Source: Giardia intestinalis (Eukaryota). From it: a stretch of DNA of 64,000 nucleotides. Under the pieces are notes generated by a model that made no database searches, was not told where the DNA came from, and worked only from the letters and a program-made list of their open reading frames with translations. Positions 23,681-56,140 of the stretch are shown piece by piece. Positions within the stretch are counted from its first letter, which is position 1. Each line of letters opens with the position of its first letter. The position numbers and the translations under genes are program-made. The stretch lies in NCBI GenBank assembly GCA_000002435.2, contig CM018793.1. The stretch is one strand, 5' to 3'.

Positions 23681-23716
23681 ACTAGGGGTGAGAAGAAGCA
23701 ATCTGTCCTCTAAGCT

Positions 23717-36076: not shown

Positions 36077-36093
36077 TAAAACTTTTTGACCAC
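36077..36093. promoter_or_regulatory. 17-bp spacer between divergent ATGs of Bud32-like and the giant downstream ORF
   Basis: aaaactttttgaccac lies between the minus-strand ATG at 36076 and the plus-strand ATG at 36094. Confidence 0.4.
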
Positions 36094-39000: not shown

Positions 39001-42000
39001 TTGAACATCACAGTACTAAAAGGAGCCGCTGGAGCGGGTGAAGGCTTCTCTGCTGAGCAGTACAAGTTGGGCCACGAAACGCTTCATGCCAGTTTTTCTT
39101 TAGATGCTTCTTTACGTGAAGCCTCTTTTGACCCTAGAGCTGATATTGAAGGTGTTTACGCTAGTATGTCTCCTACAGCACGACTCGGTGACGACGGATA
39201 TAATAAGCTCGAACAAAACCAAAGCGACACACAAGCAGCTTCCAGTCCTCATCCATTTACATTTCTAATCCACAAATTGGGTATTATGCCCAATTACATA
39301 TCAATAGCATACTCCTGTCAGCAGGATAGCACAAACAATCAGTTCACAGACCAATTTGATATCATTCTCTTAAATATGACTACAGGGCTAACAGACTGTT
39401 TAAAAGACACATGCACGAAAATAGGTCTACCATTAATCAATAGAGGAGAGTCTGCGGCTGGATGCAGACGCTTGCTATTCTTCCCCAACATAGAAGGGCC
39501 ACATGAGTTCAGCAAGAGCTACGATTTTACTACTTTTAGAGGCACTATGGCATCGGATGCTAACCTTGCGGTGCATGAAATTACTGACATGCAGCATGCG
39601 GAAAGACACGATAGCCGCTCCTTCACAGTTATAAAAGGCGCAAGCAGCAACCTTTATGCTAGCATTCATATGCTCCAGCAGCCGGGACGGATGGGCAGTG
39701 GTGGATCCGGGACCTTGAGCTTTAACCTGTTGACAAGGATTGGAAGTGAGTTTCTAGAGAATATAAAAGCTGAAACCTTTATTGAGAAGAGCTTTTACGA
39801 TACTATCAAGACCAAGAAGTTTGCACACGTGATTATAGACCCTTATAATCAGCTCCCGTTTGCATATAAGCACCACTATGCGGAAAAGAACGATAAAGAT
39901 AATAACAATTGCTACAGATCTATCGCCAAGGTCGATTGTGAACGAGACATAGCTGTGCAGCTAGAGTCTTTGAACTCACTTAGCTATAATTGTAACAATG
40001 ACGTCATTCCCCTTCTCTTGGGTATTCTTTATTCTGAGGCAGTAGCACCAGCACTCCAAGAGACCGCGTTCAAAATTCTCATCTATAAAATAACCCGCGA
40101 TAACTTCTATGAGGCTGTTAACAAAGAAATGAGCCGTCTTGAAATGAATAGCAAGGTTAAAGAGCAAAAGCAGTGGATTCTCTTGTTGAACATATACTTC
40201 TTCGGCCATAGACGCCTGTTGAACGCATTTCCCATTCTTCCAGATGGGTACACCGGGCTAACGGCACACAGATATGATCACGAATGCATTATGAAGCTAG
40301 ATGTAGGATCGTTGGTCGCTTATGCCCTGCTGTGTGGGTATGTCTCTATGTCCAAAGCCACTGACCTGCTCTCCTTGTTAAACAAGGACAGTGATACTGC
40401 CTCCTCTAGTCACGCACTAACGATAGCGGTTCTTCAGGCACTTACCTGGCAAATAATCCGTAAAGTGATCGTTATTAATACAGAAGTCTACATGGTCTTG
40501 CTCATCTTCATCAACTTTCTTATTAGCAACGCCACTATGATCTCTGTTCGCCGAATGGCCATTTGCTCGTTGACATTAATCGTATCGACGGCCTGGGAAA
40601 ATCCTGGAGTAGCGACTGCTCTTATTGATCTTTTCAATGAAAAGGAGCTTATTTCGGAAAAGATACGCCTCCTTATTAGTTGCTTATTTGGTGGTGGTTG
40701 TTGCGACCAGGATTTGCATGCTATTAGACCCAGTTTGCTCGATACAAAAGATCGTCCTAGATGCTCCTGTAATTGCTGCAACTGTGCACTTATAAACAGC
40801 GATAAATCACTCGGTCCCTTTATTATTATAAGGGTGATTTTTGTCCACATTCTGTTAGATATCATAGATTTATACCTTGAGAACAATAGAAATTCATCTG
40901 AATCCAGTATGGACGCGACACACCTGCATTACTCTCCAGCTGTGGCCGGGATGTTCATCAGCCGGGAGGTTGTGGACGAGTGCTTCCACTGCCTGGACTT
41001 GCTGGGAACAAATAACTACATGACCTCCAGCGACTCAACCGCGTACATCGTCCAGCCGCTCTCGAGCCGCTTCGTCGCGGCCCTGTACAGAGGGACGGTC
41101 TACTCCCAGACACACAGCATGGACCCGTGCAACCGCTACGCCATGTCCAACGCGGAGGCGCTGGTCTTCATGATGGCCTACGTGACCCATCTCTTCACCC
41201 TTCCCCTTAACGAGTCCAAACAGGTTGAGTGGGACGTGCTGCGCGGGTGCCCCGTATGCCTCGTCAACGGGGGCTGCCGGTGCGTACGAGTGAGCTGGCC
41301 TGCCGTCAGGAGCCCCGACTCAAAGTCTGCCCCACAGAACTACGTGACCGTTCGGTGCCTGACGTCGGACTTCTTCTGGACATACGAGCAAAGCTCTAGC
41401 AGCTATGCTAGCCTTGAGGAGTACTTCGATAAGCATTACGTGGCCCAGGACCCCATCACAGCCGCAGTGTTTGAAAACGGCAGGCTGGTCAACGCCCACT
41501 TCAATCCCAAGAAGCGCTACGACGCGGTCCTGTTCAGACGAGCGGACAGGGCGGACAGAGAAGACAATAGCACAAACCCCGAGCCCCGGGCGAGCTCGTG
41601 CTACCCGGAATTCATGCTTCCGTGCCTCTACAACCCGACCACGCGCATCAACTATCCCGGGTACCTATTCAGACAGTGCCTCTTCGACGCCGCGGGCTGC
41701 ATGATCGGGCAGTCTGTCGCATCCCGGCTCATCGACATGCTCTTGTATCCGGCAGGGCCCCGGGTGCAGCAGAAGGAGGAAGCCGGCGATGCCTGCACTC
41801 CCGCCGCCTTAGAGTTGTTCAAGAGAGCAGCAGGATTTGGAGAAGACATGCCACTTCTTATCCTTAACGCCATCAGCACGCTGCACGGCGTGAATCTCCT
41901 TAGGGCTCTGCCGCCCTCTCAATTCGACAGTGAGGCAGAGATCGAGGCCCTGGCAGAGCACCAGAGGACGGCATCTTTCAAGGACGCACTGCTGGCAGCA

Positions 42001-42207
42001 ACGCACAGCCACAGCGAATACGTCAACGTTATGACGACGTTCTGCGAAGAGAATGTCACGCTGAAGGCGGGAATGAACGACAACGTGTGCAAGATGGAGC
42101 ACAACATGGGGTACCTCATCCACGCGCGGTATGAGTCGTCCAACGACCAGGTTCGAGGAACGGTGCTGCGGTTCGCTGGATTTGTAATAGGTTACATGCC
42201 CAACTGA
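36094..42207 (+). CDS. Giant hypothetical protein (~2037 aa; first ATG 36028 rejected as it lies inside the Bud32 CDS)
   Basis: 6.1-kb uninterrupted ORF with no recognisable catalytic motifs. The 3' ~1.3 kb (from ~40.9 kb) is far more GC-rich than the rest. Confidence 0.6.
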   Translation: MFPSLHLSIRPNFSQRSVIGVAIYTYSTPLKLPLPIIPIFCRSSIIKQILLNGIECPSEALFPINHSLLYSAESAPKPSKSYTSLLDLQDLVYTARTVRYRVGDFYLDLSSLLPQFALAEQLKASSTALGGSLDPDATDTVKDPLHASAAAPRFNLMTITIIFETCNRSLFIEYPSTSTLMSGRLSTMLVVGNTGNSADWLPIPLFSMSVSHNITLQFASLPQEYRPICGGRLCICSRAGSQSLPATQVTCASTGYLFTDLFGSLHKLCFIIARANGFLHMEPFHTPDAKNVKDGTSANRKESQHSFDFLRTEYHKLIDQHRTISIYELVRLSPILQSIFTFPHNAKDGGFIGLNLVCYTLTNMRQYDLSAQVYTLYKAFRLAIDFLSLTPHRGRNFNIAIFFDGCGRTIIGNGIIVIPLMPCNYMAACMSYMRVISEVVAKYIFGVHVPAADYASQPVCTVLQQALMLHIRHALLGAVDTRRFYYEVSIRGASEVSASSPALWHQYLTHDVEERYNPGQFYLHHIKGALNYGLYGTPMDRIDGLLKNVGCTSKGTLNASIKKASIKAPACISHLEAVYNFLDTSFGTSYSVKPSNKNVWLAESDKDRLHFLNSQGSYKSANLKLKKGKKSHASKSHEYYPSDCQIYTTHLKETNPIEVAALTADKSRWFNHNTLYNVDFLLNLYRSTAATAFTQMGALTNKHVEDLAQTTIHHSKHAVSLDPDNFSLGNSFSSPTMPRKMGMQLSTALKVDQSFEVDDVVTDFGVDIDSQSAASSSVFAGGKQSGTFRSVDTQAAYTLYGTQKSGILKGSQYSANMSDGVDGDSALLLSLKRPMDACIQSLANSLCLDMESLSLMYFYINEPFFPIAYAVPEDKIRTRAEIIGMTIRNNLTTQGFRSFLQSFLDIGYVQINLFFKFLDEVCSNKSYFTGGTWLKTVASDAPDISPEKDAGVDFPDPNLSLLPDTGEYSLNITVLKGAAGAGEGFSAEQYKLGHETLHASFSLDASLREASFDPRADIEGVYASMSPTARLGDDGYNKLEQNQSDTQAASSPHPFTFLIHKLGIMPNYISIAYSCQQDSTNNQFTDQFDIILLNMTTGLTDCLKDTCTKIGLPLINRGESAAGCRRLLFFPNIEGPHEFSKSYDFTTFRGTMASDANLAVHEITDMQHAERHDSRSFTVIKGASSNLYASIHMLQQPGRMGSGGSGTLSFNLLTRIGSEFLENIKAETFIEKSFYDTIKTKKFAHVIIDPYNQLPFAYKHHYAEKNDKDNNNCYRSIAKVDCERDIAVQLESLNSLSYNCNNDVIPLLLGILYSEAVAPALQETAFKILIYKITRDNFYEAVNKEMSRLEMNSKVKEQKQWILLLNIYFFGHRRLLNAFPILPDGYTGLTAHRYDHECIMKLDVGSLVAYALLCGYVSMSKATDLLSLLNKDSDTASSSHALTIAVLQALTWQIIRKVIVINTEVYMVLLIFINFLISNATMISVRRMAICSLTLIVSTAWENPGVATALIDLFNEKELISEKIRLLISCLFGGGCCDQDLHAIRPSLLDTKDRPRCSCNCCNCALINSDKSLGPFIIIRVIFVHILLDIIDLYLENNRNSSESSMDATHLHYSPAVAGMFISREVVDECFHCLDLLGTNNYMTSSDSTAYIVQPLSSRFVAALYRGTVYSQTHSMDPCNRYAMSNAEALVFMMAYVTHLFTLPLNESKQVEWDVLRGCPVCLVNGGCRCVRVSWPAVRSPDSKSAPQNYVTVRCLTSDFFWTYEQSSSSYASLEEYFDKHYVAQDPITAAVFENGRLVNAHFNPKKRYDAVLFRRADRADREDNSTNPEPRASSCYPEFMLPCLYNPTTRINYPGYLFRQCLFDAAGCMIGQSVASRLIDMLLYPAGPRVQQKEEAGDACTPAALELFKRAAGFGEDMPLLILNAISTLHGVNLLRALPPSQFDSEAEIEALAEHQRTASFKDALLAATHSHSEYVNVMTTFCEENVTLKAGMNDNVCKMEHNMGYLIHARYESSNDQVRGTVLRFAGFVIGYMPN

Positions 42208-43367
42208 GCAGCACTGAGACCAGGAGGCAGCAGCTCGTGCCGGCGCCAGTTGTCCCTCACAAGAGAAAGCGCCTCGTCCCTGGATAGGCTGCGCTCAGAC
42301 GCAAGAACCTCAATCGCGGTCGCCATTGACCTGTCCCAGTCGTCCTGGTCCTCGCGGTACCAGTCCGTCTCCAGAAGCAGGCACTCCTTGTCAGACTTCC
42401 GTATGCACGCCCGGGTGGCCTTGTTTGCCTCTGTGAAGTGGGACACGGAAAGGAGCACGCGTCCGTGGCATGTAGAGACGGCAGCCTGCAGCTTGCGGAA
42501 TGTCTCGTGGGTCCCGTTGTAGGAGTGCATTATAATGCTGCGATTGTAGCTGGCATACTTCCTGGCCATGGCCTCCAGCTGCTCCGTGAAGATAGGCCAG
42601 AGGCCAGGCTTACGAGAGATGATGTGGACGTTGCAGTCCCTGTTCATCTCGAAGGCCATCTCCAGCTGCGGGGAAAAGTAGCGGGTCTGTGTGTCCAGTG
42701 GAGAGTCAGCCAGCGCGGCCGGCCGAGTGTCCAGGCCTATCTCCCCCACAAACGCGGTCTGGTCCGCAGCCAGTCTTGCTCTGACTTCAGCCAGTGTCGC
42801 TGCAAGATCGGGGTGCATGTGCAGGTAGTACGGGTGCACTCCGTACCCGACTCGTACAGAGAGGGGATGGATCCTCCTGAACTCGGCAAGGTCTTCGAAC
42901 TGAGTCGGGTCTGTGGCGTTCAGGAGATAGACGTGGTCCGGCCTGAACCAGGTGCCGACAAACGCCGAACTGAAGTGGCAGTGAGCGTCAAGCATTTTAA
43001 GTGTCGCCCCTGGGGGCATCGGAGAGATCAGCGTGGGTCTGGAAGAACCGTCGGACGTCCTCAGCAGTAGCAGGGGCTCCTCGAGCTGGCCGCTCCGCTG
43101 GCGGTGGGCCTCGGACGACAGGTGTTGCACCAGGGCCAGGGAGTCCTTGAAGGCGAGATCGCACAGCGTGCACCTCAGACAACCGCTGGATGCACGCTTC
43201 CCGTCGTCGATGACGGTCTGGGTGCCAGAGAGGGCGACCAGCTGCGCATACCTCGACATGCGGACGGTGTCCGTGCGGTCAATTTTCGTTGGTCCATTCA
43301 CTCCTATATCTCCGGACGCTTCACCGCGCCAGGACCTAGAAGGGCTCTGGCGGTACGTATCCTTCAT
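42192..43367 (-). CDS. TatD-family metal-dependent nuclease with N-terminal C2H2 (U1/matrin-type) zinc finger
   Basis: Zinc finger CLRCTLCDLAFKDSLALVQHLSSEAHRQ. TatD motifs LDAHCHF, GEIGLD, HIISRKP, IIMHSYNG and LLETDWY. Overlaps the 3' end of the convergent giant ORF by 16 nt. Confidence 0.75.
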   Translation of the reverse strand: MKDTYRQSPSRSWRGEASGDIGVNGPTKIDRTDTVRMSRYAQLVALSGTQTVIDDGKRASSGCLRCTLCDLAFKDSLALVQHLSSEAHRQRSGQLEEPLLLLRTSDGSSRPTLISPMPPGATLKMLDAHCHFSSAFVGTWFRPDHVYLLNATDPTQFEDLAEFRRIHPLSVRVGYGVHPYYLHMHPDLAATLAEVRARLAADQTAFVGEIGLDTRPAALADSPLDTQTRYFSPQLEMAFEMNRDCNVHIISRKPGLWPIFTEQLEAMARKYASYNRSIIMHSYNGTHETFRKLQAAVSTCHGRVLLSVSHFTEANKATRACIRKSDKECLLLETDWYREDQDDWDRSMATAIEVLASERSLSRDEALSLVRDNWRRHELLPPGLSAAQLGM

Positions 43368-43561: not shown

Positions 43562-44233
43562 TCACGAGACAATGAAGCTATTGATCCACGTACACAGGTC
43601 TTTCTGCTCGGCCAATGAACAAAAAATATCCGCTACGCTCACCCCTCCTGGAAATCTTTTCATCATATCATTAATCTCTTCGCCAAAAACGTCTATTTTA
43701 TCGGACACGTGTGTAAATAATAACTTATCATTTTTCGGAACTTTGATCTTCTTTTCGGCCTCTACCAGGGTTTCGTTGACTTCCTCTGAATTGGACACAA
43801 TATCCTGAAGCTGTTTCAGTGCTTGGTACTGACTATTACTAATGGCTTCGACTCTATTCTTGGCACTTTTTAGTTCGTCCCGCAGGCGGTGTAGCTCCAA
43901 GTCAAGCTCGTACGCGTACTTGTAGTGAGTAGCGAACGCTGCGATATGGCGGGATGTCTCTTCTGCAAATTCTCTGTAGAGCTGCTTAAGCTTTGAGAGC
44001 GCCATCTTGCTGGGCGGCCCCTCAGACGCCCTAGTTAATTGATCTGCGGCACCACTTGCCGAGTGAACCAGTCCTGGCTTCTGACCAAAGTTGAAAGCAG
44101 AGCTTGTTGTGTTCAACTGTGAGAGGCCTAGCTCACTCCCACTCAATGGAGCCACCCCGAATCCACCGGTAGACCCTCGAGATAGGTCCACCGCCGGTGC
44201 CAACGAGCCCCCGAATGAGAAGCCGCTCTGCAT
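43562..44233 (-). CDS. FG-repeat + coiled-coil protein (central-channel nucleoporin-like, Nup62/Nup54/Nup58 class), 223 aa
   Basis: N-terminus MQSGFSFGGSLAP...GGFGVAPLSGSELGLSQLNTTSSAFNFGQKPG, with four FG/GF dipeptides in Gly/Ser-rich context. C-terminal ~130 aa is heptad-rich (LKQLYREFAEETSRHIAAFATHYKYAYELDLELHRLRDELKSAKNRVEAISNSQYQALKQLQDIV). Minus-strand context gaaagatttttattaATG. Confidence 0.5.
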   Translation of the reverse strand: MQSGFSFGGSLAPAVDLSRGSTGGFGVAPLSGSELGLSQLNTTSSAFNFGQKPGLVHSASGAADQLTRASEGPPSKMALSKLKQLYREFAEETSRHIAAFATHYKYAYELDLELHRLRDELKSAKNRVEAISNSQYQALKQLQDIVSNSEEVNETLVEAEKKIKVPKNDKLLFTHVSDKIDVFGEEINDMMKRFPGGVSVADIFCSLAEQKDLCTWINSFIVS

Positions 44234-44265
44234 TAATAAAAATCTTTCGCGGAGAGCAGCTCGCT
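44234..44265. promoter_or_regulatory. 32-bp spacer between divergent ATGs (FG-protein gene and giant membrane-protein gene)
   Basis: taataaaaatctttcgcggagagcagctcgct. Track start 44197 (GTG) would overlap the opposite gene, so it was moved to ATG 44266. Confidence 0.4.
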
Positions 44266-47200
44266 ATGCTGGAGGTCTTCATCTCCGTTTTTGTTTTTCT
44301 TCGACATCACTCCTTTGATGCTAGCCCTGCTGTTTTACTAATGTCCATCTTTTGGGTTATTGCCGGTACCACACTACTGCTGAGCCCCCAGCTGGGTTCG
44401 CCTTATCTTCTAAGCCATTACATATATAACGTCATAATGTCTATGCTTTTGATAAAAGATGTTTACTTTTTTCCCAGCAAGGCGAGTGTACTGCTCCTTC
44501 TAATTCCTCTTTTAAATTTACTTCCATTATTTATGATAATCTTGATAAGATTTTTTACTCCACGTCCTCCTAACACCTTCATTTACATATTATGTTATTT
44601 AACGCAAATTTTTATGTTTCTGTGGCTAGAAGGCTGTGGGCCGTATGCGTTTTACAAGTTGTCCGGGTCGCTGGCCCTTTTGCTCAAGCGCATTGCGGAA
44701 GGTATCGCCACCAGGGGGTTTTTTCCTGCCATCTTTAGCACCGATTCTCTTGTACTAATCTACTATAGCGTGCTTACCGTGTTCCACTACCAAATCAATC
44801 TATCCTTTATGCATGCCCAGAACACTGCAGCCATAAGGGAAACAAAGCTGTTCTTTGCGCCCTCGTTCATTCCTCTGCAGCGGTTTCGTCTACTTTATCT
44901 CATTTCCTTGATCGTCCAGCAGTTCTTTGAAAACATAGTCTTTTCCATCTACTTTGTCTATTGCGCTCTGGTCTTTGTTAACGCTTATCTCATTGCTTCG
45001 CGCGGTTCGCTCTCCCATGTTCACAACGGTCCCTGGATAACCCTATCCCTTTCAACCTTCATTTTATTTTACAGCTGCTACAATATATTAATAACCATAT
45101 TTCCGTTGATCGTAGGTAAGGTCTCTAGATACAGTACTCTTTTAATGATTTGTCTACCAATCTCTTTGGCTGTTTCAGTCGGTGTGACTGTAACGCTCCT
45201 TGTGCTCGGAAAACGAATTAGGATAAACGTCATTAACGATCATAAGCGGATCAAGGTACGGCACTCTTCTAGCTTTCGTGGACGACACAGGTGCCTTACA
45301 ATCAGACTTCTGTCCACCATTCCGGCAAAGAATGTTAGCGTTAAGGTTCTGACTTCAGATGGCCATCATCCTGCCATGCAGAAGGACACTGCTGTTCTCC
45401 TGGATCCTACTGCAATCCAGAACTATACCCTTCATACTCCTCTCTCTAAATCTATGGTGATGATATTGGCGTTCTATTTTGACATTCATACAGTCGCTAG
45501 CTTTGTTTTACCAAATGACTACACGTTCACAACCGATGATATCAATAGCTTGGTGTACCTCATAAAGGATAGCAAGTCCACCAGGCGTCTGCCAGAAGAG
45601 CGCGTCAAGGAAAGACCAGGAGCACATCCCAATTCTATTGTTTCTTTACCACAGCTGCATAGCGACGCGAACAATCTAATCGGCTCCCCGCCCCTTACCA
45701 GCTCTATTGTGGATTCATCAAATATTGAGCGGCCACGTTCAGCCAGTGCTACCCACCGACATACCACTTTCCTACACCACGCCTTTTCAATTCCCGACAC
45801 TAGCCTCACCATGAATAGAGAGGCACTGGCGGTTGAGCACTTGGTGAGCTGCTCGACAGATGCACCAGCGCCCTGTTACAAGTCATCGAATGACGCTCTC
45901 ACTTATCCATCTAATAGCTCGTCCGAAGACTCGCCCAATTTGTATGGCATATCAGCTACACAAGGCGCTAACTGCCCGTTGCCAACTGGACATACATCCA
46001 AGGCTTCGACCACCCCTAAAACGGGCTGTGAGACACCAAAAGAGCTTCCCCTTACGCCAAATCAAAAGATTTTTAGGGATTTTCTGGGCACATTAGACCC
46101 TCAGAAAATCTTCACATATGTTGTACAAGCAGAGAACCTTCTAGAGGATTTCAGACTTTTCTATGAGAATATATATGCATCGCTGTTTCTTTCTTATTGC
46201 GCTGCGTCGCAAACTTTAGAGTCTATGACGTTACTGGACATTGAGGAATGCCTGCCTATCCCTCTTCTTTTACGCTATCTGCGTGCATGGAAGACGCCTA
46301 GTGACGCATATAACAGTATTATATACTACATTGATCAGTTAAAGAGCGTAGACGACTTGAAGCGGGAATACCAAGCAGCGCGAGCCACCCGTCGAGAACT
46401 TGAACATGCATCCACTGCCCCTAATGCAACGCGCAGCCTTACTCTCAAGCCCATTTTCGTGGAAGCAAGGAAAATACCATCTTTCACTTGTAGCAACTCG
46501 TGCACAAACTGCCCTCGGTGTAGGGTACACGCAGTCTGCAACCACTGTCATGCAAAAATAGCAATCCTTCTAAAATCCACATTTAACTTTGTTATGGGGA
46601 GAATGAAGACAGATAAACCGCCATCTAGAGGCTTCAATTGTCCAGATTGCAATCGGCCATGTTCGCTCAAGATTGTAGAGTCACTCTCAAAGAAACAGAA
46701 TAGGAAGATCCCCGGCACAACTCTGCACACCACATCTGTCAAGCCAAGGATACCTCAAAATTACACAACATTTCTAAACAAATTGACCCCTCTTGGGCGG
46801 CGCATTCAAACACCCACAGCCTACTCCAGAAAAAAGCTACCAGCCGTGGACTTCTTAAGCTTTGAGACTGTATCAGAGCAAACAGACGCAAACCTACCTC
46901 ACTCTCGCCAGCATTCAAAGCGCTTGTCGCGGGATGTTGTGCAGTTATTACTAAAGGCATTTATAAATGACATGGAAAACAGCATAAACGAAGAGACCCC
47001 CATGATATGCGAGTGGGCCACACAAAAGTATGCGTCCACTAATGCTACTGATCAGGCCAGTCTCGATGCAAAGCAGCGGCCAAACTCAAACACAGACTCT
47101 AAGATGTTTTCCCGAGATCAAAATATTGGACTTCTGCACAAGAGTTACTCCGTCATCTCTCCTCAGAACTTCAATGGATCAATCTACTTTTTATCGCCCG

Positions 47201-50200
47201 AGATATTTGCAGATGTCACCATATCCGAGGAATCGAAATCTTTCCTCTATAACTGTAGAAAGCAGAATTATCTCTTTACGATCTTCCTCCCAACAATTAC
47301 AAGCACATCAAGCACAACAGGCAACATCCATCGTTTAAGTTTTGCCTATGACAGAGCGGCAAGCCTCACTAGCCCCCTGAGAATTCTACGGATGAAGGTG
47401 CTAATCCACCTGGCTCGGATGCTTTTCCCTGTCCATCTGTATGTGGATAGTATTTACCCAATCCAGCTTGTCCCATGCTACAAGTTTTATACACTTGGAA
47501 GAAGCTATATAGAAAATGCCACAAACCGTGTTTCTATGATCTATAGTCCTGAATTTTTATTAAAAAGACAAAAGGACTCGGAGGTCCGTGTAATTAGTAA
47601 GAACACGAGCCTGAAGAAAAGCATACAAGCAATGTATCATCAAGAGCCTCTCTACCTATATTGTCTTGCTCAGAATGCTCTAACTATAAAGACACAAGAC
47701 AAAATGGATAGCTCTATTCTGCAGTTTGTTAACGTAGAGTATTTATTTATGCAGGCTGCATTTACTGGTATCAGTAGCTCCTATCTATCGTTCTTCTATC
47801 GCTTGTACTATACCAATAACGTCTCCTTTTTCACCCACTTGCTATCTCTCTCGAAACACTCCAGCGACGCCGATTTTCCAGTGGATCTGACAACGAAACT
47901 GGACAAGCACGGATCCAGCCTTTCTACTATTCCTGGGTCCATAGCTATCAATGGACTATCAATAGCTTTGAACTGCCACACCTTATCAGATCAAACGGCG
48001 GATGCCTACGCAGTGATTGATAGGTTGCTAGGTGGAATGTATTCGGTTCAAATACCGATCTATACTTGGCTGGAAATGGCAAAGATACGCCTCTCTACAT
48101 GCACTGTTTATTTGGAGCTTTTGCGCGGACTTAACTCTGACATATTTTCAAGATACGAGAGTGTGCCTGCAATCACCAGCAGCCACTCTGTCCCCATGGA
48201 AATGTCAAGCATACCAAGCATACCATCGGGTTTGGAACTGGATGCTGATGAGAAACGGACTCCATTGGTATTTGAACACGGCATTACAAACGCAGAAAGG
48301 CAGGACAAAACGCGTCTCAGACACGGGCACTCCTTTAATGTGTCTACACTTGAAGATTACCACCGTCTGCATGATGCCATTGCCGAGCTGCTCTCTGTAT
48401 GCCAAACCCTCCTGGATAAACAAGTGAGTGAGCTAGGATTTCCTAATGAATCACATGAGGTCCAGATGACAAGAATATTAGATGGTTGTAAGAGCTTTTT
48501 TAGGCATTACTATGTGTTCTCCACGCAGCACTTGCTTCACGTTGTCTTTGATCTTCCTGGTATAGTGAAGTACGCTCCTCGCAACACTCGTAGTAAGCCT
48601 ATTTATCGTTATCGCAACGGTATCCCAGAGCTCATTACTCACTCACGAAAGTATTCTAATCATCCGACTGATACCCTAGATGCAGCAAGCGCTGATACTG
48701 AAGAACTTGGGAGCGAGTCTAGCAGCGACTATCTGGAATCTCCCCCCTTGCGTCTGGAGCCTGACATTGAGGACAGTGGGTCCGATGTCCAGGACAATTC
48801 TACTGCCTTTGTGGCACACTCCCCGGCGCTAGCATTGGATGGCTTCAACAAGTTATTTATTCCGCAGCTCCCTCACATGGCGACCTCCTCCCACCCAAAA
48901 GCCTTAGTGATTTCCAAAAAGCAGATTGCGGCTAATTTATTTGCTATTTATGAGCATGTGATCCTAGAGAATGATATGTTGGAGACTATATTATTAAATA
49001 ATATTACCATCAACGGACTGCCATCAATTGACATCAATGGCATGCCCTTTTCTCTTCTATCTCTTTTGGGAAAGACCCCATCTCGGTGTGTCGATGGTTC
49101 CCCGACAAAAGACTCGAGCGATACCCCGCACGGGTGTACCCCTACCACGTCCATAGACGTAGCCAAATTGCAAGATTTACTGAGCTCACATGCACAAGCA
49201 CTAGCAAAAGAGAAATACATTGATAAGCTCATGCAGCATTTTAGCTCTCGATCTCTCTATGACAAGGTGGGCTCTGATCATTACTCGCAAATCTCCGCGC
49301 CTCGTCTGCGTCAAATTATTCTCTCTCTTATTACAGATAATGCAAGCGACTACCAGAGTAGTGCTTCGGGTTACGGTAACATGTCCTTGGATAATGCCCC
49401 GCCCTCGTCGAGCGTCTTGGATTCCGAGCCATGTGCTGGTGCGGCTCCGGCCCTCCCCAATGTATCGGCAACATTTAGCGCAACGTTTAGCACCAGTGCC
49501 AGCACAACCTATTCTCACGTAACAGAGGCCCAAAACACGTTTACTGAGCCCCTAGTTTCTGCTAAAGACTTCGCATTCTTGGGGCCAACAATGGCGAGTA
49601 ATGTAGATCGGTTTGGCATAAAGAGGAAAGCAGGCTACAAGTCCTCCAAGCTTTCAAGTTGGAAGTTCTCGCTTTCCTCATTAAACTCATCAAAGCTACT
49701 TCGTAGGTTTATCAGCAAAGGAAGCAAGAGCTCATCGCTGTCTCTTTTGGAACCGGAAAAAATCAAGCTCTTCTTAAAAGCAGGTTCCGCATATGTCCCA
49801 TTTGATTTTCCTCTTTCAGGCGGCTCAGTGTCATCTTCACTTGCAAGCGATCCTGTTAGCACGCAGCAGCTACTCCTTGCGATGATTGTGATGCTCAATT
49901 TACTTCACCTGTACTCCTCTTCTAACGTGCTCACAACTTATGAATATCGTGGCCGGCAGCTTCTAACTCTTCAGCAAAATCGCTTCATTGTGGACTCGAC
50001 TGGAGAGTATTATCCGGCAGCCTATAGACAAGAGCTAGAGCAATCCTATACCCTTAACTTTAATACTCAAAATCCAGACGACGCTGTCAAGAAGTTTATC
50101 TATTGCTTTGATGAATCCTTCACGGGACTGTTCCCAATCAAAAGCCCGATCCTGTGCAAGCGCTACCTTAACACAGACTTTGATCTGACGATACCTATTG

Positions 50201-53200
50201 ATGGTATGAAGTATATCCACGTGTCAGATTCCCCCAGTAACCTTCTAGCACCTACATCGCGCTCTAAGTGGCTTGAGAACTTAAAGCAGCCAGATTTCAA
50301 TACACCAATCAACGTTTATGAATGTATAGAAGCACAAGTATCAATGAACATGGGATTCTCGCTGATTAGATATAGACTGAGGTTTAGGAACTTGCTACTA
50401 TATAATAGTATTGTCTTCGACACTCTTATTCAGTTGCGGAATATAATTAGGGTAGATAGCACCTTGAGAGCAAAGATACATGCCTATAAGATGCTCCCTC
50501 GCTTAGGAATGTTCTCTAACCACTCTGATGTCCTGCTAAAGAGCTTCTTTGAGAAAATAATAAATATCCAGGACTCCATTCTTACATCAGATCCATCTGC
50601 ACTCCACATACCTCATGGTGGGGCCACCATGAAGGCCTCAATTGCTGACACGAGAAACAGCGCGCCCACACCCATGCTAATCCATCACTGTAAGCGCCTC
50701 CACGAGTGCCTAGATGTACTGTGCAGATATGAGCACATCCTTCAGAGTCTTTGGACCATGAGACTTACGCTGTTGCGCCACAGCTATGCAGAAGAGGACT
50801 TTCTTCTTCTGCTACAAAACGAGTGTCTCAGAGCCCTCTCCACAAGCTATGGGATTCCCAGTGAGTACTTCTTTGCGCTCTTTTCTAATATTATGAACTT
50901 GGACCCCGAGACGAAGCAGTGCTACATGTCCTCGTCCATAGAGCATGCGTTCCCGAAACATTATGCACTATTGTACCAATTACGATCCAGTAACCAAGAT
51001 GATAGGGAGGTTACTCTATCGTATCCACTATTGGATGAAAGCACATATGCCCGACAGCAAAACGTTATTCGTTACTTTTCGGCGATGGAGTATGACGCAA
51101 AGAGAATCGAGACGGCAAACAGAAAGTTCTTTATCACGATAGCAGAGCTGTTCGCATTAGGAAAAGATCCGCTCGGGCAGATAGAACATATCTTGGCAGC
51201 GTCACCCAGGGCCGCAGGAGCTTACATTCTCGGACCAACTTTTGATACCTTACAATTATTTAAAGGAACTATTGGGGTTGATGCGGCTTTTCCTCACTCC
51301 AATATCTCAATTGCAACAAAAGACCCTCTAGACAAAGCCGAGGAACCCAAGGATTTCGATGATCTTGCATATTCTAGCTCAGTCTTAACAGATGACCCAA
51401 CCAATAGCCTGTGTCCTTCGTCAGAGACGACCTTATCAATGACGCAAAATTCTCATCCTCCATTGGCCAAAACAACCGCCAAAGACGTGCAGCATTCTGA
51501 TTTTCAGAGTATCTTTCGCAAAGACAACTCCACAATATCAAATGTTAAGGATGACTCGTTCAATCGGAACAAACGTAGCTGTGGAAAACCAGATCTTAAT
51601 TCAGGAGCCTGTGCGCGCATACATACGCAACATTGGCGGATTGTAGCTTGTCTCTATACAAACAGCTCACTGATCCTGATAACGCTCTTTTACATTTTCC
51701 TTGTGTGCTACCTTCTCTTTATCTACTCATACTCCCTAACAAACCACGTAATAGCTAAGAGCTTGCTTCAGCAAGGCGGGCATATCTCAGGCATGATGGC
51801 GGCCCTCTCAGACTTGCAGACTGAGATAAACATGAATGTGGCCCTCCAGCAAACCAAGAATAATCCCTTTGAGATTCTTTCCAGCTATGCCGAACGGTTT
51901 AATGAAATTGCAAACAATGCTTATTCTGCCCACGTAATCACGGCTGCCATGTACAATGGTTTATCTATTAACGATGTTGTTCAAAGGGAGCTGGAGCTCT
52001 CTGCCTTCTGGCCACCCCCGATGTTATACTATTCTGGAGAGCAGATAATGAACGTAGAAGACTTGAATGTTAATAGTGGTCATCAAAATATCACTTGCAC
52101 AGTTACAATGGGTACCCTTTCCGACCAGTCTATTGCCACCTTGACGAACTCCAGGGACAAGTGGCCAGCGAACTTAAGCTATTTGAAATCGAAATTATTG
52201 CCACTTAAAAATCTAAAGTACCTTTTAAACTTTAAAGTTTGGACGCAGACAAGGGATTTTCTACAATTGCAACAATCAGATATAAAAGAGTACCTCGACA
52301 CTTACAATGAGTTTAGCATAGGACTATATGATGGGAGCTTCCGTAATTTTATCACTAACTACCCTGTTACAATCCCAATTACCTCATCTTATTCGATTGA
52401 GCAACCAGATGGCACACTAAAAGACCAACTCAATTCTCACAGTACTAATTATTTTGAAACTACTGATATACTCGTCAATAGGGTAGTGTGCATAGCTGCC
52501 TCTATGATATATATTTCTCAGCAAGCCTCTAGCTTTAATCCTCAATACATATCCTCCAAAGAGTCCTCAATGTTGACTCTTTATAGGCCAATGGCCAGCC
52601 TGATGTTGGAAACAGATTTCTTACAAACAACTTACCAGAGCATGTATGTTAATCTTCAAGAGATTATGATAAACACGTGGGCAATGTACTCTAGATACAC
52701 GCTTAACAGGCTGGTTCTTCTTGCATTTACATTTCTGGCAGTTGGACTTTTTATTCCCCTCTATTACTTAAGCTTTCAGAGAGTGCAGCGAAGGCTTTTG
52801 AAGGCAAAGCTTGACCGCGCCTGCACCCTTGCCAACATCCTCTCCTTACCAAAAGCTATATTAGAGAGCCTAATGGACAATTATGCTCAAGCCTCGATGA
52901 TCCCCTTCAAGCAATTCTTGTGGGGGAATAAGGGGTATTCGGCAACAGACATAGACTTGCCCAGAGAATACTACTCCGACATATACTCATATACTCAGAG
53001 CAAATCAGTGTACAATCAGACACACTTTAACTTGGCGGAGCTCACCATACATTCCTCCAAAGTCATTGAAAATAACGTGAAAATCAAGCAACACAACGAC
53101 CCCGACTGCAGCTTAAAATTTTATTCGCACACAGACGAGATCTCCCTTATTCTTCGCCTTGTTGCTATCTACGACAATTTAAGCAATAGCAAGATGCACA

Positions 53201-55971
53201 TCTTATTATATACCTTTGCCTGTATGGTGTTCTTTTTCTTTTTCATCGTTAACATGACATTTCCACTTCATTTTCGGAGTCCCTTTGTCTCCTCTGGGCT
53301 AGACATCAACAGCTACTACGGACACTGGGGTAACATCTCTCACTTAGCTTTCCAGCTTCCTGTCAATGGCTGGGACTCTGCAACGATATATACGGAGCAA
53401 CTAGCGCAGCGGCAACTATATAACATTAGCCAAATCACAAAGTATTGGGCAGCAGTCCAGTCAACCCCGTCTTCTTTTATCGTCGATGGCAGCGACCTAG
53501 TGGCATACATGACTGGAATTCGCGCCACCGAATTTGCTTCCGACAAACTTTATTCCCCATTCTACATTAACAAGTACATGGATGAGCTTGTGCAGACACC
53601 GTTTCTATATGCTTTTGACTACATTAAGGATCATACTAAACTGGTTGTGTCGCTTCTGCAATGGTTAGATGATGTCAGCTTTATAAGCTCCGCATCCTAT
53701 GGCGCCTCGAGATGCTTGGAATGTACCACAATATACTACCTCTTGCAGTATGTTCTAAAAGTCTCTCCTGTGTCGCTAATATACCAGATAGAACTATTAT
53801 CCCATCTTTCTAGCGTCAGCACAGAGGATCTTATAAAAGCTGACTATTATCTGGATTTCTTCACGGTACACAAACGCTTTTTAGACGTGTTTTCAAATAT
53901 TCATGATAAGCTGTGGCAGGGACTTGCCTCTTCTGCAGACGTATCCACCATTTCTGCATTTATGCAGCGCTATAAGTACTTTGCCAACTATAATACCACA
54001 GGGGCTGCCAATTACGATGAAAGCGCAGCTATTGCCCTGGTGAACAGTGTGCCGCCTAATACTGCCCTACCGAGCATGATCAGCAAGCATGGAAACCTTG
54101 TGCGCAAATTACTCGAACGTCTCTATGGAGGGTCTATTATTTTTGATGCTATCATCTTCTTGCTATTCTTGATCTCCTTGACTGCATACTTAATAGTAGG
54201 CTGTGTATTTGTATACAAGAGCGTTCTGTTGACGGTTAGAATGTATACGAAAATCTCTGCTGTCACACGGTGCGCGTGTAGTATCAAATACCTTGTTTCT
54301 TGCTTTCTGCCCCTTGACTTAATGTTTTTGGTTCCGGCTCTGTTAGTCGTGGCCCTTATTATGTCGCTGCCGATCATTTATGACGCAAGCACAACCATGG
54401 TAGCAATACTTGGCAACTACATAAACTATCCTCTATCTGCTGAGGCCATTTTGCGTGAAAATGCCGCATTTTCTCATCAGCTGACTCCTTTGTCATATAC
54501 AAAGTTCTCCACGATGCAGACTATCACAAACTACCTTGCTCTTCTAATCTTCTTGTTGTCCTCGCTGTCTCACCACGTAATTCTTCGTAGCAGAACGGTT
54601 ATTGATACCGTAGGCTACATCAGGTATACCAAGGGACAAGAGCAAGAGCTGTTCAACGCAGAGAAGAATCCATTTGTGCTTTCTATTAAGGAAAAGGTTA
54701 CTATCTGCAGGCCTGCGAACAACTCGGCTATGGATCATGACAAAAATGATGATAGTAACGACAGTAACGCTTACTTTAATTTGTATGATGATTATATACC
54801 TACAGCTGATAGTCTAGCATGCGATGATGCTAAAAGCATTGGGAAGGCTGGCGCCCATAAGCCAAATAAGGACCCTTTCCTGCGAGAAGAGTGCGAAACA
54901 ACTGCTACTTATGACCTACCCGTTTTTCTTCCACCGTTGTTCATACCTAAACAGAAGTTGGAATATGTTGAGGTCTTCTTGCGCTACGCTCTGATCTGCT
55001 TGCTTATCTGTTCAATACACTTACTTCTTTCTGCATCTCGTTTGGCAGACTACAATCCAAGGAACATCCCAATTGCGTTTCTTGATCAATTAATACATAA
55101 TTATAATGTGCTACGGGGGCAACTCTCACAGATGTATGCATATCCGCCGACAAAGTACAGAGAGTCCCATCTGATCGTCACTACCTTTAGATGCTTTAGA
55201 CAACTGATCACCTTTCTCTTGGCCAACAAGTACACGCAAAGGACCCTATCCATCCCCATTCAAAGCATGCGCGTCTTCAAAAATATAGGCATAGACAACG
55301 CCTTCTACCAGTATGGCCAACACATTAAAGACTTTCTCCAGTCAAACATATATGGCTATACCAATAAAGTGATGGACTTCTCAGGATCAAGTGTGGAATA
55401 TGACCCCGTAATGCCGACCACGTGGATGAGTGGGAGCAAGTATTATAACATGTGGTCCAACCTTCCACCTAACAACAGGTCACGACTGTTTGTGTCAACC
55501 AAGATTCCTAACTATCACAAAGACGGGTTTGCTGACAACAGTGTCCTTTTTCCGCTCTACCAAAAGCTTCTTCTTTTTGAGTATGCATACTATCAGCCGA
55601 ACTTCGCCAATATTCAGAAGGACCTGGATAACTTGTTAACGCGCTCGGCTACTGGTACGTATGGATATAACTTTCCTAATTTTCTCCCTGAGCACAAGAA
55701 GATCATATTCTTTGACATACTGAGGAACCAGATGTGGACGGAGAGCCTCTATTGTAACCATTACCTTAGAATGGCCGGCATACTTCTACACTCTATTTCA
55801 ATCCTCCGAGCGCTCACAGAGCTGTCGGTTCTTTTAATTATCATTCTAGTTGTTGCAATTATTCATATAACGGCATACAAGCTTCTGTTACTGTTTTACA
55901 ATAAGAAGTTGACTCTATATGAGGTTTTTACGGTCCTGTTGTTGAAGCGGATTCGTGGCCTCGTGAATTAG
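44266..55971 (+). CDS. Giant polytopic membrane protein of unknown function (~3901 aa)
   Basis: 11.7-kb uninterrupted ORF. N-terminal ~330 aa has at least 8 hydrophobic helices. Further TM-like helices near residues ~2480, ~2820, ~3010, ~3310-3400, ~3620 and ~3890. An internal Cys/His cluster lies at 46.49-46.67 kb. Confidence 0.65.
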   Translation: MLEVFISVFVFLRHHSFDASPAVLLMSIFWVIAGTTLLLSPQLGSPYLLSHYIYNVIMSMLLIKDVYFFPSKASVLLLLIPLLNLLPLFMIILIRFFTPRPPNTFIYILCYLTQIFMFLWLEGCGPYAFYKLSGSLALLLKRIAEGIATRGFFPAIFSTDSLVLIYYSVLTVFHYQINLSFMHAQNTAAIRETKLFFAPSFIPLQRFRLLYLISLIVQQFFENIVFSIYFVYCALVFVNAYLIASRGSLSHVHNGPWITLSLSTFILFYSCYNILITIFPLIVGKVSRYSTLLMICLPISLAVSVGVTVTLLVLGKRIRINVINDHKRIKVRHSSSFRGRHRCLTIRLLSTIPAKNVSVKVLTSDGHHPAMQKDTAVLLDPTAIQNYTLHTPLSKSMVMILAFYFDIHTVASFVLPNDYTFTTDDINSLVYLIKDSKSTRRLPEERVKERPGAHPNSIVSLPQLHSDANNLIGSPPLTSSIVDSSNIERPRSASATHRHTTFLHHAFSIPDTSLTMNREALAVEHLVSCSTDAPAPCYKSSNDALTYPSNSSSEDSPNLYGISATQGANCPLPTGHTSKASTTPKTGCETPKELPLTPNQKIFRDFLGTLDPQKIFTYVVQAENLLEDFRLFYENIYASLFLSYCAASQTLESMTLLDIEECLPIPLLLRYLRAWKTPSDAYNSIIYYIDQLKSVDDLKREYQAARATRRELEHASTAPNATRSLTLKPIFVEARKIPSFTCSNSCTNCPRCRVHAVCNHCHAKIAILLKSTFNFVMGRMKTDKPPSRGFNCPDCNRPCSLKIVESLSKKQNRKIPGTTLHTTSVKPRIPQNYTTFLNKLTPLGRRIQTPTAYSRKKLPAVDFLSFETVSEQTDANLPHSRQHSKRLSRDVVQLLLKAFINDMENSINEETPMICEWATQKYASTNATDQASLDAKQRPNSNTDSKMFSRDQNIGLLHKSYSVISPQNFNGSIYFLSPEIFADVTISEESKSFLYNCRKQNYLFTIFLPTITSTSSTTGNIHRLSFAYDRAASLTSPLRILRMKVLIHLARMLFPVHLYVDSIYPIQLVPCYKFYTLGRSYIENATNRVSMIYSPEFLLKRQKDSEVRVISKNTSLKKSIQAMYHQEPLYLYCLAQNALTIKTQDKMDSSILQFVNVEYLFMQAAFTGISSSYLSFFYRLYYTNNVSFFTHLLSLSKHSSDADFPVDLTTKLDKHGSSLSTIPGSIAINGLSIALNCHTLSDQTADAYAVIDRLLGGMYSVQIPIYTWLEMAKIRLSTCTVYLELLRGLNSDIFSRYESVPAITSSHSVPMEMSSIPSIPSGLELDADEKRTPLVFEHGITNAERQDKTRLRHGHSFNVSTLEDYHRLHDAIAELLSVCQTLLDKQVSELGFPNESHEVQMTRILDGCKSFFRHYYVFSTQHLLHVVFDLPGIVKYAPRNTRSKPIYRYRNGIPELITHSRKYSNHPTDTLDAASADTEELGSESSSDYLESPPLRLEPDIEDSGSDVQDNSTAFVAHSPALALDGFNKLFIPQLPHMATSSHPKALVISKKQIAANLFAIYEHVILENDMLETILLNNITINGLPSIDINGMPFSLLSLLGKTPSRCVDGSPTKDSSDTPHGCTPTTSIDVAKLQDLLSSHAQALAKEKYIDKLMQHFSSRSLYDKVGSDHYSQISAPRLRQIILSLITDNASDYQSSASGYGNMSLDNAPPSSSVLDSEPCAGAAPALPNVSATFSATFSTSASTTYSHVTEAQNTFTEPLVSAKDFAFLGPTMASNVDRFGIKRKAGYKSSKLSSWKFSLSSLNSSKLLRRFISKGSKSSSLSLLEPEKIKLFLKAGSAYVPFDFPLSGGSVSSSLASDPVSTQQLLLAMIVMLNLLHLYSSSNVLTTYEYRGRQLLTLQQNRFIVDSTGEYYPAAYRQELEQSYTLNFNTQNPDDAVKKFIYCFDESFTGLFPIKSPILCKRYLNTDFDLTIPIDGMKYIHVSDSPSNLLAPTSRSKWLENLKQPDFNTPINVYECIEAQVSMNMGFSLIRYRLRFRNLLLYNSIVFDTLIQLRNIIRVDSTLRAKIHAYKMLPRLGMFSNHSDVLLKSFFEKIINIQDSILTSDPSALHIPHGGATMKASIADTRNSAPTPMLIHHCKRLHECLDVLCRYEHILQSLWTMRLTLLRHSYAEEDFLLLLQNECLRALSTSYGIPSEYFFALFSNIMNLDPETKQCYMSSSIEHAFPKHYALLYQLRSSNQDDREVTLSYPLLDESTYARQQNVIRYFSAMEYDAKRIETANRKFFITIAELFALGKDPLGQIEHILAASPRAAGAYILGPTFDTLQLFKGTIGVDAAFPHSNISIATKDPLDKAEEPKDFDDLAYSSSVLTDDPTNSLCPSSETTLSMTQNSHPPLAKTTAKDVQHSDFQSIFRKDNSTISNVKDDSFNRNKRSCGKPDLNSGACARIHTQHWRIVACLYTNSSLILITLFYIFLVCYLLFIYSYSLTNHVIAKSLLQQGGHISGMMAALSDLQTEINMNVALQQTKNNPFEILSSYAERFNEIANNAYSAHVITAAMYNGLSINDVVQRELELSAFWPPPMLYYSGEQIMNVEDLNVNSGHQNITCTVTMGTLSDQSIATLTNSRDKWPANLSYLKSKLLPLKNLKYLLNFKVWTQTRDFLQLQQSDIKEYLDTYNEFSIGLYDGSFRNFITNYPVTIPITSSYSIEQPDGTLKDQLNSHSTNYFETTDILVNRVVCIAASMIYISQQASSFNPQYISSKESSMLTLYRPMASLMLETDFLQTTYQSMYVNLQEIMINTWAMYSRYTLNRLVLLAFTFLAVGLFIPLYYLSFQRVQRRLLKAKLDRACTLANILSLPKAILESLMDNYAQASMIPFKQFLWGNKGYSATDIDLPREYYSDIYSYTQSKSVYNQTHFNLAELTIHSSKVIENNVKIKQHNDPDCSLKFYSHTDEISLILRLVAIYDNLSNSKMHILLYTFACMVFFFFFIVNMTFPLHFRSPFVSSGLDINSYYGHWGNISHLAFQLPVNGWDSATIYTEQLAQRQLYNISQITKYWAAVQSTPSSFIVDGSDLVAYMTGIRATEFASDKLYSPFYINKYMDELVQTPFLYAFDYIKDHTKLVVSLLQWLDDVSFISSASYGASRCLECTTIYYLLQYVLKVSPVSLIYQIELLSHLSSVSTEDLIKADYYLDFFTVHKRFLDVFSNIHDKLWQGLASSADVSTISAFMQRYKYFANYNTTGAANYDESAAIALVNSVPPNTALPSMISKHGNLVRKLLERLYGGSIIFDAIIFLLFLISLTAYLIVGCVFVYKSVLLTVRMYTKISAVTRCACSIKYLVSCFLPLDLMFLVPALLVVALIMSLPIIYDASTTMVAILGNYINYPLSAEAILRENAAFSHQLTPLSYTKFSTMQTITNYLALLIFLLSSLSHHVILRSRTVIDTVGYIRYTKGQEQELFNAEKNPFVLSIKEKVTICRPANNSAMDHDKNDDSNDSNAYFNLYDDYIPTADSLACDDAKSIGKAGAHKPNKDPFLREECETTATYDLPVFLPPLFIPKQKLEYVEVFLRYALICLLICSIHLLLSASRLADYNPRNIPIAFLDQLIHNYNVLRGQLSQMYAYPPTKYRESHLIVTTFRCFRQLITFLLANKYTQRTLSIPIQSMRVFKNIGIDNAFYQYGQHIKDFLQSNIYGYTNKVMDFSGSSVEYDPVMPTTWMSGSKYYNMWSNLPPNNRSRLFVSTKIPNYHKDGFADNSVLFPLYQKLLLFEYAYYQPNFANIQKDLDNLLTRSATGTYGYNFPNFLPEHKKIIFFDILRNQMWTESLYCNHYLRMAGILLHSISILRALTELSVLLIIILVVAIIHITAYKLLLLFYNKKLTLYEVFTVLLLKRIRGLVN

Positions 55972-56140
55972 TGTTTCTTTTTTGACTACTATGAACGTTG
56001 TCTACCGACAATCGTTGCGAAGTCGTGGATACCACGGTTTGGGGTTCGCATAACTGTTCAGGTTCTAACTGATTAACCGACTATTTAATTTTGTCTTCAA
56101 TTACAATTAGACTTTTCCTTAAAAAGGCGAAAGATCCTGG

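Follow-up and report, generated by a model that had tools for sequence, protein, structure and literature searches.

The locus and its gene

The window analysed here is a stretch of 64,000 nucleotides (nt) from Giardia intestinalis (assembly GCA_000002435.2, contig CM018793.1). Its plus strand carries the gene GL50803_41451, the subject of this analysis, which begins with the ATG at position 44266, ends with the TAG at 55969-55971 and is translated into a protein of 3,901 amino acids (aa); the surrounding stop-to-stop frame covers 44197..55971. By exact-sequence match the product is XP_001704743.2 (identical to KAE8305504.1), a “hypothetical protein” of G. intestinalis WB C6. GL50803_41451 is a genuine single-copy protein-coding gene for an integral membrane protein. 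As far as sequence searches reach, it belongs to a previously undescribed family that is confined to diplomonads, namely Giardia, Spironucleus, Hexamita and uncultured hexamitines.

An earlier note, made from the DNA letters alone, had described a single uninterrupted open reading frame (ORF) of 11.7 kb at this place, and had named a chimeric assembly or a frameshift between independent genes as what would speak against it. The note's guess that the gene comes from Giardia is borne out by the sequence match, and the frame is indeed unbroken. At the base composition of this region the chance of 3,901 stop-free codons is about 1e-90, and each of the other five frames contains 188-269 stops over 44266-55971. 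The same 3,901-aa ORF is present on 12 contigs from separate assemblies, and the four loci displayed stem from four different sequencing runs (SRR10209740, SRR10662882, SRR10662886 and SRR3178016). Since these 12 copies are identical and the orthologs described below can be aligned collinearly from end to end, the ORF is neither a chimera nor a frameshifted fusion. Comparison with the ortholog of a Giardia-like lineage (L006) gave a nonsynonymous divergence (dN) of 0.27 with saturated synonymous divergence (dS), and their ratio omega amounts to 0.05-0.12 where dS is estimable, which shows that strong purifying selection acts on the gene. The 11.7-kb frame has been kept open in lineages with 35%, 48% and 59% guanine plus cytosine (GC). 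The minimal expression evidence, one peptide, could be cited in favour of a chimeric assembly, of neighbouring genes joined by a frameshift or of a pseudogene in decay. Weighed against the reproducible assembly, the collinear orthologs across diplomonads, the strong selection and a frame that stays open at 35-59% GC, the probability of such an artefact is negligible.

Two gene models differ in the start codon. An older RefSeq entry comprises 3,918 aa and starts at ATG 44215. Its extension (44215-44265) is not conserved, as in L006 a stop codon interrupts the frame directly before the common start MLDVFISVFVF. Additionally, the A/T-rich element ATTAATAAAAAT lies downstream of the older ATG and a short distance upstream of ATG 44266, where, judged by what is known of Giardia promoters, it may serve as an initiator or promoter of the Giardia type. 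Because of the upstream stop in L006 and the position of ATTAATAAAAAT, the model of 3,901 aa is probably right and that of 3,918 aa wrong. The coordinates of all features are compiled in Table 1.

A family of diplomonad proteins

For the exhaustive phmmer search residues 1-1200 were used as a single-sequence query against 1.84 billion cluster representatives, and 15 matches were obtained. Every match that was traced or named belongs to a diplomonad, whereas six short fragments were left untraced; one piece among the short-fragment matches is 99% identical to GL50803_41451. No relative outside the diplomonads was detected among the traced or named matches of this search, and none of the 333 pattern sites found in a metagenome scan with the core profile was confirmed by tblastn. 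Within the range of the phmmer search no second Giardia copy was found and Spironucleus is represented by a single entry with two gene models, while Hexamita has two paralogue groups with 4-5 near-identical copies in each.

Within the genus a full-length ortholog is found in Giardia muris (GMRT_14506, TNJ29255.1, 3,667 aa). The Giardia-like lineage L006 (ERR3333382, gene at 3001-14664, 3,887 aa) is the closest one, with an ortholog that is about 62-64% identical to GL50803_41451, and it is the only one in which synteny is preserved. Its contig has 35% GC compared with 48% for the window, and its assignment to G. intestinalis assemblage B was rejected on these grounds. The automated gene model of L006 is truncated at its N-terminus, as the frame runs upstream to MLDVFISVFVF. 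The largest member of the family, with 4,578 aa, is encoded at 10001-23737 of a 59-kb contig with 59% GC from a second Giardia-like lineage (L005, SRR31929897). Spironucleus salmonicida possesses a “transmembrane domain-containing protein” in two gene models (EST46173.1 with 2,441 aa and KAH0573502.1 with 2,222 aa), and the two paralogue groups of Hexamita inflata are represented by CAL6050305.1 and CAL6062994.1 with about 2,390 aa. Two metagenomic contigs (L007, ERZ27250126, and L008, ERZ23499584) contain N-terminal fragments from uncultured hexamitines. Their frames are open only if TAA and TAG are read as glutamine, with 0-1 stops under genetic code 6 as opposed to 6-15 under the standard code. 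As they are readable only in this way, they have to be assigned to hexamitine diplomonads, in which gene calling with the standard code had broken up the genes.

In the family alignment the seven full-length proteins are collinear from the N-terminal membrane block to the C-terminal tail, with an overall identity between Giardia and the hexamitines of 17-19%. On the L005 contig the neighbouring genes encode Vps26, a zinc-ribbon transcription factor, a DUF4485 protein and a RING finger protein; these have no counterparts in the window and there is no synteny. Neighbouring genes were not used for functional assignment, as gene order is uninformative in a eukaryote.

Membrane topology

Kyte-Doolittle hydropathy reveals an N-terminal cluster of about eight transmembrane (TM) helices at aa 22-315, the count of which is uncertain between 7 and 10. 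In the C-terminal part peaks are centred at aa 2477, 2825, 2986, 3305, 3362, 3431, 3579 and 3862. In total there are about 16 (15-18) TM helices, located at equivalent alignment columns in all orthologs (n=7). All hydrophobic strings that the earlier note had quoted for the N-terminal block are present (aa 23-39, 76-97, 106-121, 265-283 and 292-314). The helices it had listed in the C-terminal third exist as well, but their later positions had been placed about 25-40 residues too high and the helix at aa 3431 had been missed. Approximately 2,145 aa (321-2465) separate the two clusters, where it had put about 2,000 non-membrane residues. One further hydrophobic peak, at aa 397-415, is unlikely to span the membrane, as its hexamitine counterpart reads “...AAFYGPEF.G”. 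The helix at aa 72-96, the second strong one of the N-terminal block, is followed by an “RPP” turn (“…LIRFFTPRPPN”, aa 72-102), and R100 is invariant in seven orthologs.

The orientation of the chain was deduced from charge. Because of the basic stretch at aa 316-345 and the positive-inside rule, the central region is predicted to be cytosolic. In the resulting model, which is consistent in itself, the central region of about 2,150 aa, two loops of about 130-140 aa and the C-terminal tail would lie in the cytosol, and three loops of about 325, 296 and 260 aa would face the lumen or the exterior. Lysine plus arginine (K+R) account for 12-18% of the residues in the tail and in those loops that the model places in the cytosol. 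Of the four loops that it places on the far side, three have 4-7%.

A very large protein with many TM helices at strictly conserved positions could be taken for a mechanosensor or an ion channel that carries a giant regulatory domain in the cytosol, or for a substitute of IP3R/RyR, the TM helices then forming the pore. Release channels of the IP3R/RyR type are not known from Giardia, and the acidic clusters of the first conserved block (E627, E634, E652, D658, E660 and E661) could bind Ca2+. In contrast to this expectation, the TM helices are the least conserved part of the protein (5-20% identity between Giardia and hexamitines). The only invariant residues within TM segments are F237 and F2821; both are hydrophobic, and none is polar or charged. 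The 15-18 helices are not arranged in repeated 4-TM units, there is no internal repeat, and Pfam reveals no ion-channel, Piezo, RIH or MIR domain. A channel of this kind is accordingly quite improbable.

Conserved blocks and lineage-specific insertions

Conservation is distributed unevenly along the chain. Giardia and the hexamitines are 45% identical in cytosolic block 1, the tail reaches 28% and block 2 25%; for the TM helices the values are 5-20%, and for the large far-side loops 12-15%. Many of the residues that never vary in the three cytosolic blocks are acidic, aromatic, His or Arg, and the invariant positions cluster at aa 627-684, 1009-1054 and 2057-2196.

Block 1, the most conserved part of the family, is also the best-matching stretch common to most of the non-Giardia phmmer matches. 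Its invariant residues are E627, Y633, E634, N635, I636, Y644, Q649, E652, D658, E660, E661, P664, P666, W675, T677, P678 and S684, and the family pattern derived from it (aa 627-684) is L.YENI[YF]…TLLD[IL]EE.[LM]P.P…W.TP. In block 2 the seven full-length proteins share P1009, S1015, T1018, G1019, N1020, H1022, L1024, S1025, F1026, T1035, L1038, R1039, R1051 and F1054. The metagenomic hexamitines show that two of these positions are not strictly invariant, as G1019 is replaced by N in one variant (VTNNVHRLSF) and F1026 by W in the other (VTGNLHRLSW); the pattern of this block is TGN.H[RK]LS[FW]. Block 3 contains invariant N2012, P2014, L2057, D2064, R2068, P2078, R2079, E2156, L2170, D2178, R2189 and G2196. 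The tail, found at the C-terminus of every ortholog, has F3888, L3891, L3893 and K3894 as invariant residues and the pattern F.[SV]LFLK[RK]. GL50803_41451 shows the patterns of block 1, block 2 and the tail together with the eight isolated C-terminal TM helices.

The central region consists of a core of about 1,050 aa, common with the hexamitines, and of at least about 1,000 aa of insertions in the Giardia lineage. Giardia-specific insertions of at least 25 aa add up to 1,039 aa and are nearly all located in this region; one Giardia-specific insertion lies at aa 407-556. Between the two most conserved blocks lies a cysteine cluster without any Pfam match, mostly within insertions that are absent from hexamitines; eight of its cysteines are kept in G. 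muris and L006. The cluster resembles a two-zinc finger that was probably acquired in the genus Giardia, and it may bind zinc. Tandem or internal repeats were detected neither by TRF nor by self-BLAST nor by an all-against-all hhalign comparison of 10 modules, the best probability of the latter being 1.1%. By the same comparison the idea of three TM-loop-TM modules as diverged copies of each other was rejected.

Table 1. Features of GL50803_41451 and their positions in the window (identity values refer to hexamitines; topology is predicted)
Feature	Position	Strand	Residues	Remarks
A/T-rich element ATTAATAAAAAT	44232..44243	+		23-34 nt upstream of ATG 44266; candidate initiator or promoter
Complete coding sequence of GL50803_41451	44266..55971	+	1-3901	3,901 aa and TAG stop
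N-terminal membrane block	44266..45225	+	1-320	about 8 TM helices; 15% identity
Basic stretch KRIRINVINDHKRIKVRHSSSFRGRHR	45211..45300	+	316-345	directly after the N-terminal block
Cytosolic block 1	46048..46365	+	595-700	…LFYENIYASLFLSY…TLLDIEE.LP.PLLL.YLRAWKTP…; 45% identity
Cysteine cluster	46489..46662	+	742-799	C-x3-C-x2-C-x2-C-x5-C-x2-CH…C-x2-C-x3-C; 8-9 Cys and His
Cytosolic block 2	47086..48045	+	941-1260	25% identity
Motif S-x2-T-G-N-x-H-(R/K)-L-S-F	47308-47343	+	1015-1026	within block 2
Cytosolic block 3	50053..51165	+	1930-2300	…PD.NTP…D.TLRAK…PRL…LLRR…TYG.P…
First C-terminal TM helix	51661..51729	+	2466-2488	in all 7 orthologs
Predicted far-side loop 1	51730..52704	+	2489-2813	K+R 5.8%, 2 Cys; 15% identity
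Second C-terminal TM helix	52705..52773	+	2814-2836	followed by basic cytosolic loop FQRVQRRLLKAKLDR with invariant D2850
Third C-terminal TM helix	53194..53256	+	2977-2997	
Predicted far-side loop 2	53257..54144	+	2998-3293	K+R 6.8%, 2 Cys; 12% identity
Three close TM helices	54145..54585	+	3294-3316, 3353-3373, 3420-3440	
Seventh C-terminal TM helix	54973..55035	+	3570-3590	
Predicted far-side loop 3	55036..55815	+	3591-3850	K+R 10%, 2 Cys; 14% identity
Last TM helix	55816..55884	+	3851-3873	in all orthologs
Basic cytosolic tail (predicted)	55885..55968	+	3874-3901	K+R 17.9%; signature F-x-S/V-L-F/L-L-K-R-I-R-G

A membrane-embedded enzyme would also suit the arrangement of two TM clusters on either side of a conserved cytosolic region, in which Asp/Glu, His and Arg residues are invariant; the cytosolic core would then be catalytic and the TM clusters would handle the product. 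In the processive polysaccharide synthases FKS1, chitin synthase and cellulose synthase the layout is the same. The restriction of the family to diplomonads would be in accordance with a role as the cyst-wall beta-1,3-N-acetylgalactosamine (GalNAc) synthase (CWS). According to a 2026 review (PMC13315228), this CWS is known only as an activity that can be induced, and it has not been assigned to a gene. Nevertheless, neither a glycosyltransferase family nor a corresponding signature was found by Pfam in any of the orthologs or segments. The “RAW” of block 1 (YLRAWKTP), the only string of this kind, is not a conserved QxxRW motif, as its R varies between family members (LASW, ISTW, ARNW). The secondary structure of the AlphaFold2 model, which is of low confidence (predicted local distance difference test, pLDDT, of 35), is nearly all helical and not alpha/beta, and the TM helices are poorly conserved. 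The gene is also absent from supplements of encystation RNA-seq and encystation proteome papers, the files of which may be incomplete. We thus regard an enzyme as very unlikely. In a wider formulation, the family would be a hitherto undescribed type of membrane machine found in diplomonads only, in which the conserved cytosolic core together with the two TM clusters would catalyse or conduct. This is still highly doubtful, and that the machine is the synthase of the cyst-wall beta-1,3-GalNAc polymer is extremely improbable.

Search for known domains and folds

That the protein has no recognisable domains, as first noticed by eye, is confirmed at the level of sequence by searches of Pfam, NCBIfam and the PDB with single sequences and profiles. 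Pfam gave nothing for the whole of GL50803_41451, for 16 segments at E<=5 or for the seven full-length orthologs. Ortholog segments (core, block 3 and C-terminal module) were likewise negative; the best Pfam match of all these scans was YkyA with E 0.0085 in a single ortholog, and no family appeared in more than one. NCBIfam returned noise only. In the PDB nothing significant was found by phmmer, and profiles of five regions (whole family, core, N-terminal TM block, block 3 and C-terminal module) reached best E values of 0.074-1.5 for short, unrelated stretches. One of these hits, the thioredoxin “WCGPS” aligned with “AWKTPS” at E 1.5, was rejected as evidence.

Structure prediction led to unusable models. 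AlphaFold2 reached a pLDDT of 45.6 for aa 1-370 from the single sequence, and a pLDDT of 35.4 with a predicted template modelling score (pTM) of 0.24 for aa 1-1200 of a Hexamita ortholog from a family alignment of nine sequences. The low-confidence secondary structure cited above refers to the latter and is almost all helical. A Foldseek search of the PDB with this Hexamita model produced noise, with a best E of 0.67, a probability of 0.02 and a TM-score of 0.06.

Diplomonad proteins are notoriously divergent, and the protein could be an extremely diverged ortholog of a pan-eukaryotic membrane protein such as NDC1, a Pecanex-like protein of the endoplasmic reticulum or another large polytopic protein, and the family would then be unrecognised but not new. 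This is in line with the low overall identity of merely 17-19% between Giardia and the hexamitines, with AlphaFold2 models too poor for comparison of folds and with an exhaustive search that used one sequence and aa 1-1200. On the other hand, none of the seven orthologs (0/7) has a Pfam family, no weak segment match recurs in more than one of them, and the best matches of the five regional profiles in the PDB are short and unrelated. Block 1, with its 45% identity, would be expected to keep a signal if a pan-eukaryotic counterpart existed. A diverged ortholog is thus unlikely, and among the alternatives it is the one to which we assign the greatest weight. The family can be called new in the sense that every tested membership in a known family failed, which is not a proof in so divergent a lineage.

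Expression and literature

The earlier note had recommended looking for proteomic or localisation data. Of these, a peptide is on record: in a mitosome-enriched membrane fraction one GL50803_41451 peptide with a Mascot score of 36 was reported from one of four experiments with isobaric tags for relative and absolute quantitation, with a non-mitosomal distribution (PMC3044749, Table S1). The gene is absent from the searched supplementary files of three further large-scale studies (PMC3986054, PMC4807828 and PMC6312909). An apparent match in PMC3877021 turned out to be a numeric coincidence.

The neighbourhood in the window

The other genes of the window fit a compact eukaryotic genome and include those for a DNA polymerase alpha/epsilon B-subunit and a TatD DNase. 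The latter is encoded on the minus strand at 42192-43367 as one ORF of 391 aa, with an N-terminal zf-C2H2_jaz domain (a zinc finger binding double-stranded RNA); automated calls on Logan contigs split it into genes of 275 and 123 aa. Its 3' end overlaps by 16 nt with the 3' end of a convergent gene for 2,059 aa at 36028-42207 on the plus strand. This is GL50803_112295, a further giant without Pfam match, which has 2,059 aa here as opposed to 2,037 aa in the current annotation. Its cluster at 90% identity includes GL50803_60539 (418 aa) and DHA2_154357 (447 aa) from other loci, which points to incomplete duplicates at other places in the genome. Among the large ORFs at 25729-29520, 18893-21550 and 13346-16717, those of 1,263 and 885 aa have no Pfam match, and that of 1,123 aa has a sub-threshold EF-hand only. 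Large proteins without Pfam match are the norm in this stretch of Giardia DNA.

Base composition distinguishes the giant gene from parts of its surroundings. From 44001 to 56000 the GC content is 41-47% with a consistently negative skew of -0.09 to -0.18, as compared with 52-55% and near-zero skew in those 2-kb bins that cover 40-44 kb and 58-60 kb. The values of the giant gene may reflect the codon or amino-acid bias of a protein rich in Leu, Ile, Phe and Ser.

A proposed role as membrane-anchored cytosolic scaffold or tether

The earlier note had compared giant proteins of this layout with mechanosensitive channels, tethers and scaffolds. The testable features of the Piezo type fail, as outlined below. 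A scaffold or tether would fit the pattern of conservation. Constraint is strongest in cytosolic blocks by the membrane, the TM helices keep only their position and hydrophobicity, and the far-side loops drift. For these reasons we tentatively prefer a membrane-anchored cytosolic scaffold or tether to a conserved pore or transporter, at clearly less than an even chance. On this reading the membrane parts would anchor the protein at many points, and its activity would lie in the cytosolic core, through the binding of a conserved partner. An internal membrane as host is mildly favoured, since the predicted far-side loops are poor in cysteine, unlike Giardia surface proteins. Taken together, a real giant membrane protein specific to diplomonads that works by a scaffold or tether mechanism appears to be the best overall explanation, with a probability that falls a little short of even.

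Several points weigh against this explanation. A catalytic or ion-binding site could account equally well for the invariant acidic, His and Arg residues, and poor conservation of the TM helices is compatible with a pore, as pore helices can diverge in fast-evolving lineages. The exhaustive search covered aa 1-1200 and the structural models stand at pLDDT 45.6 and 35.4. The topology was built on hydropathy and charge bias only, with an N-terminal count of 7-10 helices, and far-side loop 3 with its 10% K+R is the worst fit to it. The single peptide of PMC3044749 is the only proteomic trace found, and the gene ID GL50803_41451 occurs in no main text of the searched literature.

An orphan giant is unsurprising in Giardia in itself, and nothing mechanistically surprising was found. 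If the family is truly without relatives, its members rank among the largest conserved components that only the diplomonad cell possesses. Purifying selection has preserved the family in the parasites Giardia and Spironucleus and in free-living Hexamita alike. It is absent from the host as far as detectable, and about 900 aa of GL50803_41451 are predicted to be non-cytosolic. The protein thus deserves consideration for studies of localisation and knockdown, and it might serve as a marker or target specific to the parasite. The definition of the family yields handles for such work: the conserved blocks, the positions that never vary, the correct start codon and insertions into which a tag could probably be placed without harm.

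Comparison with known systems

Like GL50803_41451, the Piezo proteins of eukaryotes are polytopic in the membrane, very large and devoid of enzymatic domains. In Piezo about 38 TM helices form nine repeats of a 4-TM unit, the loops are short, and a C-terminal module of outer helix, cap and inner helix builds a trimeric pore, whereas GL50803_41451 has 15-18 TM helices, no repeats and a predicted cytosolic insert of about 2,150 aa. PIEZO, Piezo_RRas_bdg and related Pfam models matched neither the whole protein nor its 16 segments nor the seven orthologs. With regard to IP3R/RyR, Pfam revealed no RIH, MIR or RYDR domain and no C-terminal six-helix ion-transport domain, and the profiles were negative in the PDB.

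The synthases FKS1 (GT48) and chitin and cellulose synthase (GT2) share with GL50803_41451 the two TM clusters that flank a cytosolic region with invariant acidic residues, but they have no counterpart of its large far-side loops. Glyco_trans_2, Chitin_synth and Glucan_synthase were not found by Pfam, nor was there a signature of the D,D,D,QxxRW type. The sequence “LLDIEE” of block 1 is invariant, and nothing marks it as a DxD motif in a GT-A context.

VPS13, BLTP1/Csf1 and BLTP2/Hobbit are, in a similar manner, eukaryotic proteins of several thousand residues that are anchored in or at membranes, in agreement with the tethering idea of the earlier note. They have at most one N-terminal TM helix, a beta-rich groove and Chorein_N or Apt1-type domains. 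In contrast, GL50803_41451 shows no Pfam match to Chorein_N or Apt1-type domains, has 15-18 TM helices and yields a low-confidence model that is mostly helical.

With its diplomonad orthologs, that of G. muris included, the protein has in common the positions of the TM helices, block 1, the TGN.H(R/K)LSF motif, block 3 and the tail F.SLFLKRIRG. The proteins of the Giardia lineage are about 1,300-2,200 aa longer than the hexamitine ones, owing to insertions that lie almost all in the cytosolic region and include the cysteine cluster.

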